Origin: a virus
Lineage: Duplodnaviria; Caudoviricetes
Reading direction: 5' to 3' (one strand)
Length of the DNA: 64,000 bases
IMG/VR virus record: IMGVR_UViG_3300025167_000006
Coordinates: 34,277 to 98,276 of that record
Positions within the stretch are counted from its first letter, which is position 1; every line of letters begins with the position of its first letter. The position numbers and the translations under genes are program-made. The notes beneath the pieces were generated by a model. That model was not told the origin of the DNA. It ran no database searches and worked only from the letters and a program-made list of their open reading frames with translations. This document shows, one piece after another, positions 32,736-35,700 of the stretch.

Positions 32736-35700
32736 TGCTCAAGGTAAGTACCTTCCTTGCCGAGACTGAGTACGGGTACTCGGCCGTCCCGCTCTTCGGT
32801 CCCTCAGACGGGGAGTTTGAGAAGCGGGCGTCGCCGCATTTGCTGCCGCCGGTTCTGAAGTACATCGAGAACCTGCGGCCGCAGCGCAACAGCCAGTACG
32901 TGCTGGTGAACGCGCTGGCGGCTGGTGAGTATTTCGGCAGTAATATCAACGGCGATAACTTTCCGGAGGCTGGTCTCATCCACTGCCCGCAGGGGTGGAC
33001 GGGGAACCCCACGGTCGACATGGCCCTGTCTAAGGACTGGGCCTACGGATTCCCCTCGTTCTACAACGCGCATCCGTTCGCGCATCACCGCAACAAGGAC
33101 CCATCCAGGGCCTACGGAGCGGTGGAGTTGGCGTTGTGGAACGACGTGATGAAGCGCGTCGAGCTCGTGGTCAGAGTGGACTACGACAAGTGCCAAAAGT
33201 TCGGTGGCATTCCGGTCTGGGACAAGCTGAAGAGTGGTGCGTTTCCAGACGTCTCGATGGGCTGCCTCCCCTCCGGCTCCCTCATCACGATGTCCGATGG
33301 AACGCAGAAACCCATCGAGCTCGTGCGCGAAACGGAGATGGTGCTGACGCACACAGGAGCGCACCGGAGGGTGACCGATACGATGCGGCGGCATCACCCG
33401 GGCAGCGTCTTCCGCTTCAACGTCTATGGGTTTCGTCGGGAGCTTGTTGTCACGGGTAATCACCCACTATGGCTTGTAGACGGTGAGCAACTTCGGTGCG
33501 ACCCGCAGCCGCACACCGTTAACAAGGGGCGTAAGCAGCGACACTGTACACCCTTCGTCAAAGGTGCAAGTAAGGGATGCTCTAGCTGCTCAGTGGTGCC
33601 CTCGTACGAGTTTGAGTGGCGTAGGGCTGACGAGGCGCAGGTGGGCGACTACCTAGCTTTTCCGGTACCTACGCTGAGTACCAGCGGTGCTCTACAGGGT
33701 AATCGTTCCCTCGCTCGTCTACTCGGTTATTACCTGGCGGAAGGACATGTCTCGAACTACAACGACCGCCCTCGAGAGCAGGTGAACTTCTCTCTTAACT
33801 ACGAGGAGAATGAACTCGCGGAGGAGATTGAGAAACTCGCCCGCTCCCTTGGGGTTGAGGTGCTGTGGCACCACGAGAAGCCGGAAGTTGGCTCGCGTAC
33901 TGTATCCATCGTCTCAAAGACGCTGGCGTCCCTATGCTCCTTCCATTGCGGGGACGGCGCGAAAACCAAGGTGCTGTCACAAGAGGTTCTTCATGAGGAC
34001 CCCGCTCTGCTCCTGGAACTTCTTGGGGCCTACCTGAACGGAGACGGGGGCACATACAAGGGTTCCTTGTACTTCTCCACGTCGTCAGAGCAGCTCGCTC
34101 ATCAGCTCTTCATAGCTCTTGCCCGCTGTGGCTTGGTTGCCTCCGTCAACAAGAATGATCACAAGCCCTCGGAGAAGTCAGTTGTTAGAAAGGAGACAAC
34201 TGAGTACCAAGTTTGGGTAGGTACCGACTTCTCCTGGAAGTTGGAGCGCTACATCTCGAAGCCAGTACGTCACTCGATAAAGGTTCGCGGGCAGCGGTTC
34301 TTCTACAACAATGGCGGCGTCACGTATTTGATGGCCCCCATCCTAGAGATTGATGAAGCTCCGCATGACGCCGACGTCTTCAACTTCTCCGTCGAGGGGG
34401 ATGAAAGCTACGTTGCTGAGGGGCTAGCCGTTCACAACTCGAAGGTCCCGTACGACACCAGTTCCATCACGTTGGACTGGAAGCTGTACCGGGAGGCGCA
34501 AGCGACGTTCGACCTGAAGAAGCACAAGCATCCGGGGATGGCCGTCCTCGAGTTTCACAAGAAGCTCAAGGCGAAGGATGGCAAGGGGATCCCCGGGCTC
34601 AGCGTCACGCGGGATGACTACGACAGTTGGTGCCGCACGAAGATGAACAAGATCCTCCCAGACGGGAGGAAGGTGTTCGTATACAACGACTACCCCCGCT
34701 TCTTCGACATCAGCTTCGTTTTCATCGGGGCGGACCGCACAGCGAAGACGATGGTGTTCATCTCCCAGGTATCCGTGAAGGTGGCGTGTGACCTTGGGTA
34801 CGTGGACCACGCCTCGTTCGTAGAGCAGCCGGTGGTGGGGATGGACAAGGCGGCGTCTGCATCCGATGAGTTCGTGCTCAACATGGTGAAGGAAGCCAGG
34901 CAGGGTGTTCTCTATCATGGCTCCTCGGAAAAGAGAGAGGTGCTCACTCCACACCAGGCAAAGGGCAACAATGCCTTCCAGAATCAGAAGGCTGTGTATG
35001 CCGCCACAGAGCCGCTAGAGGCGAAGCTGTACGCAGTGGGCAGCACCTTGAAGGGCAAGACGGACTATGCCATTACTCCGAAGGACAAGCTCATTGTTGT
35101 AGGGGACGACAAGCCCAAGGCTGGTTACCTGCACGTGCTGCCTGCGGATGACGCGGTGTTTGGAAAGGGCAAGGCCAACGGTGGACAGGCTTACGTCAAG
35201 CATGAGGTTGAGCCGACTGAGGTGAAGAAGGTCACTCCCAAGGAAGTCTCCGATCGCATAATCTACGTCGACAGCAAAGAGGAGCTGAAGCAGGAGCTGG
35301 CCAAGGATACGAAGGAAGCGAGTGCTAGTAGCAAGGAGTATCGCCTTGTAAACCCCAATGAGGTATTCCTGCCGCACGAGTACTCCAAAGACCCTCGCAG
35401 CGCTTCAGCCAAAAAGGTGCAGCAGCTATCCGACGCATTCGTGAGGAGCGGATATGACCCAGAGAAGCCGCCAACCGTGGGGTATCCTGTTGAGGGAAAG
35501 GTACAGATACTAGACGGGGGTAGTAGGGCACAAGCCGCGGCTAAGGCTGGGATTCTTCTTCCCGTCACTATGGTCACTAGAGAAGGAGCGCTGGCTGCTA
35601 AAGGAACGCCTGAAGAAGGTACTTACGGGCATACTGACGTTCCCCTGAAGTACTTTCAGCTGATGAAGGAAGCCAGTGCGGATGATGTGTTGGCGGAGGC

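Follow-up and report, generated by a model that had tools for sequence, protein, structure and literature searches.

Organization of the proposed polyprotein

A single open reading frame (ORF) in the window, which is the whole 64,000-nucleotide stretch of DNA of a large uncultivated phage that was analysed, probably encodes a self-processing head polyprotein composed of a protease, a linker acting as a slot for cargo, the two cargo domains lodged in it (segments 1 and 2) and a C-terminal domain, a reading to which we assign a probability of roughly 0.6. The gene is found between those of the large terminase (28581-30392, upstream) and the major head protein (40425-41546, downstream), and the same order of terminase, protease and major capsid protein genes is present in phage Arash. 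No additional cargo-type domains were detected when ten head-module ORFs in the neighbourhood were scanned with Pfam. More than 900 metagenomic relatives of the ORF were found, the best 140 of which were used for the census of linkers. In a sequence comparison the closest relative, P0002, is colinear with ORF 32732-36403 over the protease, segment 1, which it contains, and the C-terminal domain, and it lacks segment 2. The features of the ORF are the following:

32732-36403, + strand: whole ORF, with protease, intein, cargo slot and C-terminal domain, 1223 aa
32732-33262, + strand: N-extein, first protease half, with the invariant H119 (33086-33088) and S175 of V-S-M-G (33254-33256)
32822-32833, + strand: K-R-A-S, N-terminal site before the folded protease domain, aa 31-34
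33263-34438, + strand: intein with LAGLIDADG homing endonuclease, aa 178-569, 392 aa
34439-34846, + strand: C-extein, second protease half (HMM match at aa 570-681) and start of the linker
34847-34858, + strand: K-A-A-S, junction copy 1, aa 706-709
34889-34897, + strand: first KEA, directly before segment 1, aa 720-722
34907-35311, + strand: segment 1, ADP-ribosyltransferase-fold domain, aa 726-860
35312-35323, + strand: K-E-A-S, junction copy 2, aa 861-864
35324-35665, + strand: segment 2, ParB/Srx N-domain-like, aa 865-978, with a D-G-G-S-R box at 35513-35527
35666-35677, + strand: K-E-A-S, junction copy 3, start of the native family linker, aa 979-982
35726-35746, + strand: conserved linker element K-x-x-E-I-x-K, aa 999-1005, single copy, its lysines invariant in family alignments
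35762-36358, + strand: conserved helical C-terminal domain, aa 1011-1209
36254-36265, + strand: K-V-A-S, site in a loop of the C-terminal domain, aa 1175-1178

Protease, intein and C-terminal domain

A preliminary description, made from the letters of this DNA, had called the ORF a prohead protease, and the fold of a homologue agrees with that assignment. Neither the whole protein nor either extein gave a protease match in Pfam (Peptidase_S77 and S78 included), PHROG or NCBIfam, and the protease profile of the family found no match among PDB sequences. The fold was modelled with AF2 on the intein-free relative P0027, a protein of 511 aa that is 57-66% identical to the exteins of the ORF, and the N-domain of this model reached a pLDDT above 90. 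Since the Foldseek rows for the 511-aa model were weak, with a non-trivial probability only for pUL26N, gp21 and the HCMV and VZV proteases, an exhaustive structure aligner was needed. With it the model matched T4 gp21 (5JBL) over 130 aligned residues with a Z of 10.2 and an rmsd of 2.8, followed by the herpesvirus proteases of VZV (Z 9.1), HCMV (6.7) and KSHV (6.1), while unrelated folds began at 5.5. Judged from this homologue model, the protease of the ORF is a fold-level relative of gp21 and assemblin that stands outside the described sequence families. The HMM of the second protease half of the family matches aa 570-681, and the candidate catalytic residues, H119 and the serine of V-S-M-G, are both invariant in 35-40 aligned relatives. 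A cultured relative, gp222 of Salmonella phage Arash, was detected in virions by mass spectrometry with 85% coverage (PMC10585845, Table 2); since the Arash proteome lists 116 proteins, this presence is weak proof of specific packaging.

The protease domain is interrupted at its serine motif by an intein, which did not figure in the preliminary description. Pfam matches were obtained for LAGLIDADG_3 (E 7e-11) and Intein_splicing, and the NCBIfam model intein_Cterm scores over its cut-off. The intein begins at C178 (Cys1) and ends at H568-N569, followed by S570 as the nucleophile at +1, so that Cys1, the T-x-x-H of block B, the C-terminal His-Asn, the +1 nucleophile and the homing-endonuclease motifs are all present. 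No intein is found at the corresponding site in P0002 and in most relatives. In the window phage the protease would be whole only once the intein has spliced out.

The C-terminal domain was matched in nearly all relatives and is helical, with a pLDDT above 90 in the P0027 model. Its sequence shows no recognizable similarity to known scaffolds, and by analogy with protease-scaffold fusions we propose that it may be a scaffold or capsid-targeting domain.

A variable linker

The linker between the protease and the C-terminal domain is disordered, and its length varies widely within the family. Among the best 140 relatives it measures at most 80 aa in 86 (median 54 aa) and at least 90 aa in the other 54, with a maximum of 867 aa. 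An inorganic pyrophosphatase domain (InPase, PF18823) is inside 32 of the 54 long linkers, and other contents include GNAT, DUF5661, DUF6321, cupin and Gly-zipper. Alignment of the homologues places segments 1 and 2 in a variable and apparently swappable slot, as had been surmised when the segments were described as swappable cassettes: most homologues have an empty slot, and many have different domains in it.

These contents also bear on where the cargo would act. In place of a function in the next host, the domains may serve in the producing cell or in the prohead as assembly helpers that are later degraded or left behind, for instance in nucleotide or PPi handling, in DNA/CTP binding during packaging or in the modification of head proteins. 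The commonest slot domain, the inorganic pyrophosphatase, could serve the chemistry of packaging or assembly, ParB-type domains bind DNA and CTP, and the ejection of the cargo is a step that we infer. Nevertheless, we consider such a local function rather unlikely: the set of InPase, DUF5661, GNAT, ART and ParB-like domains is that of the polyvalent proteins, for which delivery to the host has been argued (PMC5512222), and T4 Alt is a delivered precedent for an ADP-ribosyltransferase (ART)-fold domain in a phage head (PMC9503650). Moreover, about 60% of the best 140 relatives have an empty slot, which indicates that the cargo is dispensable for assembly.

Segment 1, a domain with the ADP-ribosyltransferase fold

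Segment 1 adopts the ART fold in its AF2 model, which has a pLDDT of 91.3 and a pTM of 0.84. Nearly all of the top 37 rows of a VIA fold search were ART-fold proteins, among them Tpt1 (Z 7.2), TreX (6.9), pertussis S1 (6.2) and Arr (6.0), and the best Foldseek rows were TreTu, TreX and Arr (probability 0.96-1.0; E 5e-3 to 3e-2). The assignment follows from the uniformity of the match list, the Z values themselves being middling. Segment 1 gave nothing above threshold in Pfam, PHROGs and NCBIfam and no match in a phmmer search of the PDB. Single-segment, word-indexed homologue searches with segments 1 and 2 each, and three scans of viral contigs with the segments or the segment alignment, returned no relatives. 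A homologue search with a three-sequence alignment found 21 free-standing relatives of segment 1; such proteins, of 127-149 aa, have the same boundaries as segment 1 and occur in Acinetobacter and DPANN archaea. Weak DUF6886 signals, in sequence and in features, were also obtained.

In the alignment of these relatives H729-G-S and Y799 are invariant, and position 819, Q in segment 1, is Q in 17 of the 21 relatives, two others having E in or beside the column. The archaeal relatives possess a G-Y-V-Y-E strand whose E is replaced by V in segment 1, which has no clearly conserved acidic catalytic residue in this alignment; Q819 is the candidate for the third catalytic position, the putative H729/Y799/Q819 triad being placed by strand order and not by superposition. 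The Arr/PARP-like ADP-ribosyltransferase proposed in the preliminary description is therefore upheld as to its fold, by the model and the fold searches, but not as to the Y-A-T pattern on which it had drawn: the Y of that pattern is F in most relatives, and the tyrosine that is conserved in segment 1 is Y799 in the G-Y strand. Three more specific identities were considered and rejected. With Tpt1/KptA the alignment is confined to the NAD+ lobe, over 78 residues, and an RNA lobe is missing; Alt/VIP2 has R-S-E in place of H-G-S, and no Alt/VIP2 Pfam match was obtained; ART-PolyVal likewise gave no Pfam match.

Segment 2, a ParB/Srx-like module

A profile of three segment 2 sequences matched the N-domains of ParB CTPases in the PDB with E values of 2e-4 to 5e-4, followed by Noc (0.03) and sulfiredoxin (0.6), and the top 11 matches were all ParB, Noc or Srx. 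The alignment extends over about 67 residues and covers the G-x-x-R box and the A-rich helix that follows it. D-G-G-S-R (aa 928-932) aligns with the G-E-R-R of ParB, its G and R being invariant in three relatives, so that segment 2 reads G-G-S-R where active ParB enzymes have G-E-R-R or D-G-H-H-R. A relative of segment 2 matches an annotated ParB at E 5e-5, a transitive link, whereas the single-sequence signals for ParB_N (Pfam) and parB_part (NCBIfam) were weak and under the curated cut-offs. A PHROGs scan with segment 2 gave nothing above threshold, phmmer against the PDB gave no match, and a degenerate DNA pattern recovered no relatives. DdrB-ParB was rejected as an identity, with no Pfam match. 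A relative of segment 2 lies in the 2039-aa polyvalent protein Rctr197k_173, alongside InPase, DUF5661 and 2H domains.

The composition of segment 2 is distinct as well. Its total GC is 0.542 against 0.56-0.60 in the adjacent parts, and its GC3 of 0.54, compared with 0.82-0.88 for the protease exteins, ranks it among the lowest 1.6% of 115-codon windows in 27 genes of the genome. Both earlier observations on this segment hold: the profile match and the D-G-G-S-R box support a probable ParB/Srx N-domain with a degenerate box, and the lower GC is evident in total GC, in GC3 and in the genome-wide rank.

The degenerate G-G-S-R box, the lack of a clear catalytic acid in segment 1 and the position of both segments under the Pfam cut-off would also be expected of decayed, catalytically dead remnants that now act as spacers or as bulk internal protein. 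We hold decay to be very unlikely. Segment 1 retains all the residues that are invariant in its family and is modelled at high confidence, segment 2 has kept the positions that do not vary among its relatives, the Arg of the box among them, and the 61% identity of segment 1 between the window phage and P0002, compared with 67-75% in the flanking protease parts, indicates purifying selection on segment 1.

The junction motif

The triplet KEA occurs at aa 720, 861 and 979 (nt 34889, 35312 and 35666), with segments of 138 and 115 aa between the sites, exactly as first described; from the residue composition of the last 654 aa, 0.40 occurrences would be expected (Poisson P of at least three, about 0.008). 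The description of the segments as bracketed by KEA stands in so far as the sites are repeated, but KEA itself was rejected as the signal, since the middle residue is mostly T in the relatives and the family-wide motif is K-x-A-[A/S]. Likewise, the likeness that had been seen between the flanks is real and is better stated as a K-[A/E]-A-S sequence that begins at aa 706, 861 and 979. The KEA at aa 720, where P0002 reads K-T-A-E at the equivalent position, appears to match a stretch further along the linker element and not the K-E-A-S sites.

K[TEA]A[AS] is present in three copies in the 1223-aa protein against 0.23 expected, and K-x-A-[A/S] was found 236 times in the linkers of the relatives (41 expected), 90 times in their C-terminal domains (13 expected) and nine times in the head-module ORFs of the genome (1.6 expected). 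Long linkers contain on average 2.75 copies, which flank all the inserts examined and lie 8-20 aa from the ends of InPase domains; in P0002, P0013 and P0016 the flanks are duplicated. The N-terminal site is strongly conserved, with K in 39 and A in 38 of 40 aligned relatives. Its equivalent in the P0027 model has a pLDDT below 50 and the loop site of the C-terminal domain adjoins a pLDDT dip; in fact, all the K-x-A-[A/S] sites, whether in the linker, N-terminal or in the C-terminal domain, are in low-pLDDT stretches.

K-x-A-[A/S] fits neither the T4 rule (L/I-x-E) nor that of phiKZ/SPN3US (A/S/G-x-E), which are those of the closest structural relatives, and either rule was rejected for the junctions, the nearby S-x-E triplets being inconsistent. 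At the DNA level, junction copies 2 and 3 are identical at 13 of 14 nucleotides, and an identical stretch of 13 nucleotides at 34887 and 35664 flanks the whole insertion. The latter was rejected as a recombination scar, and may only reflect coinciding codons for three residues that both sites share. Recombination within linkers could have duplicated the motif incidentally.

These observations bear on whether the chain is cut at all. The motif might be a docking or flexibility element whose copies are footprints of linker recombination, the domains staying tethered between the protease and the C-terminal domain as one large internal head protein. The departure from the known gp21-type cleavage rules (PMC10052503) would agree with this, as would the nucleotide identities just described, which recombination joints would also produce, and the vRNAP of phage N4, which is packaged unprocessed despite its peptidase domain (PMC5512222). 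We nevertheless regard an uncut chain as unlikely. The motif is kept without decay in every copy, it also occurs at the N-terminal peptide and in the loop of the C-terminal domain, where no insertion happened, it is enriched in other head-module proteins, and it is always found in disordered stretches between folded units; furthermore, gp21-type proteases process themselves (PMC10052503).

Proposed processing and delivery

We hypothesize that, once the intein has been removed, the C-terminal domain would carry the entire chain into the procapsid, as in protease-scaffold fusions. K-x-A-[A/S], in an unstructured stretch at each junction, would then delimit the N-terminal peptide, the protease, cargo 1, cargo 2, the C-terminal domain and a C-tail, in this order, and the protease would most likely cut at or beside the motifs within the prohead. 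The two freed small enzymes, of about 16 and 13 kDa, would become internal head proteins and would exit with the DNA at infection to reach NAD+-dependent or nucleic-acid targets of the host.

A wider reading, which we put forward tentatively and find somewhat less probable than its negation, joins three elements: a cargo loader common to the clade, a new cleavage code and an undescribed H-Y-Q family of ARTs. A large and mostly uncultivated clade of phages of about 100-200 kb would load cargo by way of its prohead protease gene, and a small enzyme of any kind, with a K-x-A-[A/S] junction on either side of it in the linker, would enter the procapsid at the stoichiometry of the protease, which would itself free it for delivery to the next host. 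In K-x-A-[A/S] a gp21/assemblin-fold protease would have a new cleavage code, and segment 1 would represent an H-Y-Q ART family, related to DUF6886 and common to Acinetobacter and DPANN archaea.

Relation to known systems

Fusions of effector domains with head proteins are already on record, among them polyvalent proteins that contain an assemblin-like peptidase (PMC5512222) and a Nudix domain joined to a capsid-processing serine peptidase (PMC9503650). The ORF is a protease-cargo-scaffold polyprotein, a variant of these known 'polyvalent' head-packaged effectors. Like them, it joins several unrelated effector-type domains in one late-gene chain together with a processing peptidase, its family draws on the same repertoire of InPase, ART, ParB-type and GNAT domains (and DUF5661, present in Rctr197k_173), and packaging in the head with delivery along with the DNA is the route proposed in both cases. 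Segment 2 also resembles the ParB domains of polyvalent proteins in standing alone, without HTH or dimerisation domains, and differs from ParB CTPases in having neither a ParA partner nor an HTH domain. The ParB/Srx superfamily with which it was compared also includes the DdrB-like ParB of phage P1. On the other hand, the assemblin-like peptidase of polyvalent proteins is C-terminal (PMC5512222), whereas the peptidase of the ORF is N-terminal and is the prohead protease of the phage itself, the cargo is embedded between this protease and a conserved C-terminal domain, and the junctions have the defined K-x-A-[A/S] motif. Neither segment matches the Pfam models ART-PolyVal and DdrB-ParB of the polyvalent work.

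The pair formed by T4 Alt and gp21 offers a second parallel, in which an ART-fold enzyme is loaded in the prohead, trimmed by a protease of the gp21 fold and, in T4, injected; for segment 1 loading and trimming are proposed. Alt is encoded by a separate gene, has an N-terminal targeting sequence that is cut at L/I-x-E and belongs to the R-S-E Alt/VIP2 clade, whereas segment 1 is inside the protease gene, starts with H-G-S (the H-Y-[EDQ] type by pattern) and has K-x-A-[A/S] flanks. Arr, the NAD+ lobe of Tpt1/KptA, the Rhs toxins TreX/TreTu and DUF6886 resemble segment 1 in fold, in their size of about 130-140 aa and in the H-G-[S/T] of the first strand, with weak sequence and feature signals in the case of DUF6886. 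In contrast to the small H-Y-[EDQ] ARTs, segment 1 has no significant sequence match to solved ARTs or to Pfam ART families, and its candidate third catalytic position is, by strand order, Q and not E or D.

In its layout the ORF is similar to herpesvirus pUL26, phage P2 gpO and SPN3US gp245, all of which begin with a protease of the assemblin/gp21 fold, continue with a linker that contains self-cleavage sites and end in a part that is removed or acts as scaffold; in the ORF self-cleavage is predicted. Their linkers contain no enzyme domains, unlike that of the ORF. Cleavage at the herpesvirus sites occurs between Ala and Ser, and these sites resemble the A-[A/S] of the motif described here. 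C-terminal autocleavage has been described for gp245, which cuts after A/S/G-x-E (PMC10052503).

If the proposed processing is correct, the ORF would be a natural case of modular enzyme loading into the head of a tailed phage, in which the protease gene itself encodes the cargo and a short junction motif, possibly cut by the protease, sets the limits of that cargo. It provides a cleavage code that can be tested directly, in a branch of the gp21/assemblin-fold proteases so far unstudied, assigns a function to the 'structural protein' gp222 of Arash and to its Vibrio-phage homologues, none of which is annotated as having a protease, and links the Pfam group DUF6886 to the ART fold. The slot contents form a catalogue of the cargo that the clade may deliver, namely pyrophosphatase, acetyltransferase, ART-fold and ParB-like domains, and the arrangement may offer a rule for designing capsids that package foreign proteins.

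A predicted prohead protease interrupted by an intein

The two insert domains considered here, the ADP-ribosyltransferase (ART)-like segment 1 and the ParB-like segment 2, are both encoded by one ORF located between the terminase and head protein genes, in a virus record of 98,276 bases that is estimated to be about half complete (IMG/VR). The genome also encodes a sheath-like protein and a fused beta/beta' RNA polymerase. The latter is a 2636-aa ORF (14885-22795) upstream of the structural genes, which matches both beta-type and beta'-type RNA polymerase PHROGs and is therefore regarded as a fused multisubunit enzyme.

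Features of the protease ORF and its surroundings (window positions)
28581-30392, large terminase, one flank of the protease ORF
32732-36403, + strand, protease ORF of 1223 aa, containing the whole feature under study
33263-34438 (aa 178-569), + strand, intein with LAGLIDADG endonuclease, bounded by Cys178 and His-Asn/Ser570
34889, 35312 and 35666 (aa 720, 861 and 979), + strand, KEA copies
aa 706, 861 and 979, + strand, K-[A/E]-A-S flanks
40425-41546, major head protein, other flank of the protease ORF
24688-26826, 32732-36403 (protease), 36450-37361, 37374-39416 and 43225-44649, motif-bearing head-module ORFs

In scans against Pfam, PHROGs and NCBIfam the intein with its endonuclease, which directly follows a D-V-S-M-G motif, was the only element recognized in the ORF, and no protease model matched either extein. 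When the C-extein was used as the query of a full HMMER scan, 927 relatives were retrieved (193 at E <= 1e-30), and in an alignment of 35-40 intein-free relatives (about 510-580 aa) a His and the Ser of D-V-S-M-G are invariant. One of the intein-free relatives, P0027 (57-66% identity to the exteins), was chosen for structure modeling. In its model the N-domain (residues 35-290) is confident with pLDDT > 90, as is the helical C-domain, whereas the linker (295-334) is disordered, with pLDDT < 50. The top match in an exhaustive structural search was the T4 capsid assembly protease gp21 (5JBL; Z 10.2, rmsd 2.8, 130 residues), the proteases of varicella-zoster virus, cytomegalovirus and KSHV scored Z 9.1, 6.7 and 6.1, and unrelated folds appeared from 5.5 down. 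Foldseek matches were weak, the sole rows with real probability being these same gp21 and herpesvirus proteases. Based on the fold modeled for this homologue, the invariant His and Ser and the gene position, the designation of the ORF as a prohead protease in the preliminary description is right at these three levels; the family itself lies outside every described sequence family.

Homologues in cultured phages, namely gp222 of Salmonella phage Arash and proteins of Vibrio phages D69, D148 and D181, are annotated just as "structural" or "hypothetical", and none as a protease. The N-domain relatives in Arash (gp222, locus L007:5953-7425) and D69 (locus L008:4956-6371), phages of ~180-187 kb, share 29-36% identity, and gp222 was found by mass spectrometry in purified virions with 85% coverage (PMC10585845, Table 2). 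The ends of the window intein look intact, and the family (P0003-P0151) is a hot spot for inteins: 42 of 140 relatives have at least one insert of intein size, at one or more of three protease-domain sites (within the first half, directly after S-M-G and within the second half), two or three being apparent in some, such as P0029 (1691 aa).

Contents of the slot among relatives

The slot, i.e., the linker between the second protease half and the conserved C-domain, was surveyed by mapping HMMs of the two protease halves and of the C-domain on the 150 best of the 927 relatives, and the counts cover the 140 in which the second half and the C-domain are both present. The linker is 80 aa or shorter in 86 of these (median 54) and at least 90 aa in the other 54, exceeding 400 aa in 24 and reaching 867 aa. 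In 32 of the 54 long linkers Pfam identified a phage-type inorganic pyrophosphatase, InPase (PF18823, E down to 1e-44), the other domains being DUF5661 (three), GNAT acetyltransferase (two), DUF6321, cupin and Gly-zipper (one each). P0002, the closest relative of the window protein (670 aa, JGI metagenome contig), carries segment 1 (61% identity) and has neither segment 2 nor the intein. Given these linker lengths, domain contents and the comparison with P0002, the slot is empty in most relatives and occupied by different domains in others; looking for these states among homologous proteases had been named as a test of the proposal that the inserts are swappable cassettes. The same phage also has a free-standing InPase of 176 aa outside the window (PF18823, E 4e-29; G000:C1 about 20055-20585, L006:1402-1932), with K-x-A motifs close to both ends, InPase being a separate gene in this phage and slot cargo in the proteases of other relatives.

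Identity of the two inserts

The best match of segment 1 in GenBank phage records is a 131-aa free-standing protein that is actually on an Acinetobacter contig. A three-sequence profile search yielded 21 free-standing relatives of 95-149 aa from Acinetobacter and DPANN archaea, with up to 47% identity over 90% of the segment, and since their ends match those of segment 1, the latter is an autonomous domain. The free-standing relatives P0159-P0172 come from Pacearchaeota MAGs (DPANN), Acinetobacter and a Methanococcoides genome; so scattered an occurrence is odd in a small uncharacterized family. In structure-based neighbors a zincin-like Peptidase_MA_2 is fused to the segment 1 fold. When a model built with the relatives' alignment (pLDDT 91.3, pTM 0.84) was compared with the PDB by Foldseek, the top matches were TreTu and TreX, which are ADP-ribosylating Rhs toxins, and Arr, the rifampin ADP-ribosyltransferase (probability 0.96-1.0, E 5e-3 to 3e-2), with heat-labile enterotoxin, pertussis S1, cholera toxin and Tpt1 in lower rows. 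Likewise, ART-fold proteins accounted for almost all of the top 37 rows of an exhaustive structural search, including the NAD+ lobe of Tpt1 (Z 7.2), TreX (6.9), pertussis S1 (6.2) and Arr (6.0), as well as scabin, PltA, diphtheria-toxin relatives, PARPs, MbcT and ParT; a domain of a cyanophage pre-ejectosome protein was also among the structural matches. Although no single Z is high, the hit list is uniform, and the ART fold predicted by the model is therefore secure. Sequence and feature searches weakly indicated Pfam DUF6886. The H-G-S of the first strand and the Tyr of the G-Y strand (Y799) are invariant. A long loop precedes the strand that opens with Q819, a position occupied by Q in 17 of 21 relatives; two others have E there or in an adjoining column. 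This overall pattern is compatible with the H-Y-[EDQ] ART branch. Of the earlier ART-like reading, the fold thus holds in the model searches and the tyrosine of its Y-A-T does not, as this residue (Y756) is Phe in most relatives.

Single-sequence signals for segment 2 are every one weak and every one towards ParB. The segment matches a PHROG ParB-like partition protein (E 0.08), its relative gp154 of cyanophage B23 matches Pfam ParB_N (0.06) and NCBIfam parB_part (7e-4), and its language-model neighbors bear ParB_N. A profile of three relatives retrieved from the PDB ParB CTPase N-domains (E 2.3e-4 to 5e-4) and then Noc, Spo0J and sulfiredoxin, to which the top eleven matches exclusively belong, and the D-G-G-S-R box of segment 2 was aligned to the G-E-R-R box of ParB. 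The third relative lies, as an internal domain, within Rctr197k_173 (2039 aa), which also carries InPase, DUF5661, DUF7178 and 2H phosphoesterase domains and is a typical phage polyvalent protein, unannotated as such; this internal domain matches an annotated plasmid ParB (E 5e-5). The gene (Virus Rctr197k gene 173, L005:6012-12128) belongs to a 197-kb phage from an enrichment culture. Because profile, single-sequence and transitive matches all lead to ParB, segment 2 is assigned by sequence comparison as a ParB/Srx-type N-domain. The lower GC previously noted for this ParB-like segment is also borne out: its GC3 of 0.54, against 0.82-0.88 in the protease parts, is a compositional outlier, ranking among the lowest 1.6% when 115-codon windows are taken across 27 genes in the 98-kb record, and that of segment 1 (0.71) is not.

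A junction motif at the domain boundaries

In the translated ORF the three KEA copies are found where the preliminary description had placed them, delimiting segments of 138 and 115 aa as it had stated. The composition of the last 654 aa of the protein predicts 0.40 copies, so that three are unlikely to be due to chance (Poisson about 0.008). The resemblance it had seen between the flanks is real, but K-[A/E]-A-S describes them better than KEA. An identical 13-nt stretch is found at 34887-34899 and 35664-35676, where it spans the KEA codons that precede segment 1 and those that follow segment 2, and copy 2 (35312) differs from copy 3 at one of 14 positions; the 13-nt identity could be a recombination footprint or mere shared codons.

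Two elements of the linker are conserved across the family alignment: K-x-A-[A/S] (mostly E-K-T-A-[A/S]) and, later, K-x-x-E-I-x-K. The window protein has the former three times, preceding each insert and the native linker, and the latter once (aa 999-1005), and the same flank duplication surrounds the inserts of relatives P0002, P0013 and P0016. K-x-A-[A/S] occurs 236 times in the relatives' linkers, against 41 expected from composition: about once in short linkers, 2.75 times on average in long ones (at least twice in 71%) and seven times in one linker of 867 aa, lying 8-20 residues off the InPase ends in linkers with InPase coordinates. Two further sites are conserved, one ~30 residues into the protein (of 40 sequences, 39 have the K and 38 the A) and one in a C-domain loop (90 observed, 13 expected). 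In the P0027 model the N-terminal and linker sites have pLDDT < 50, and the C-domain site adjoins a pLDDT dip. Since the motif marks every boundary between folded units, lies in disordered stretches and accompanies a protease as first domain, it is most simply read as a putative processing site. Five head-module ORFs of this genome (between 24688 and 44649) contain nine copies of K[TEA]A[AS] against 1.6 expected, and ~35 other genes, leaving out a low-complexity protein, contain one. This clustering, together with a K-L-A ~24 residues from the N terminus of the major head protein, suggests that the motif may be the general processing signal of the head proteins of this phage. Herpesvirus assemblin sites are cleaved between Ala and Ser, which the A-[A/S] pair resembles. 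The motif resembles neither the L/I-x-E rule of T4 gp21 nor the A/S/G-x-E rule of SPN3US gp245 (PMC10052503).

Discussion

Protease-scaffold fusions, and other prohead proteases that are targeted through their C termini, lead us to hypothesize by analogy that the spliced chain would reach the procapsid via its C-terminal helical domain. The protease would cut at the junction motifs, giving rise to the protease core, an ART-fold protein of ~16 kDa, a ParB-like protein of ~13 kDa and C-domain pieces, and we infer that the small enzymes would be retained in the head, exit with the DNA and be active. The preliminary description was largely right on the identities of the parts and on their swappability, excision and injection being proposals.

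Aravind's group has described polyvalent proteins as well as effectors fused to MuF, portal and the capsid-processing serine peptidase; cargo domains typical of them are ART, ParB-type and InPase (PMC5512222; PMC9503650). The present case falls within this theme and is therefore not categorically new. It differs in that the cargo occupies a defined slot preceding a conserved C-domain, a specific junction motif bounds each cargo unit, and segments 1 and 2 are outside the sequence families defined there. Our literature search found no paper describing the protease family, the junction motif or DUF6886. The Arash and Vibrio relatives are possible experimental models, and the system offers a cleavage code and a rule of cargo loading that can be put to the test in a phage clade that is widespread and has hardly been studied.
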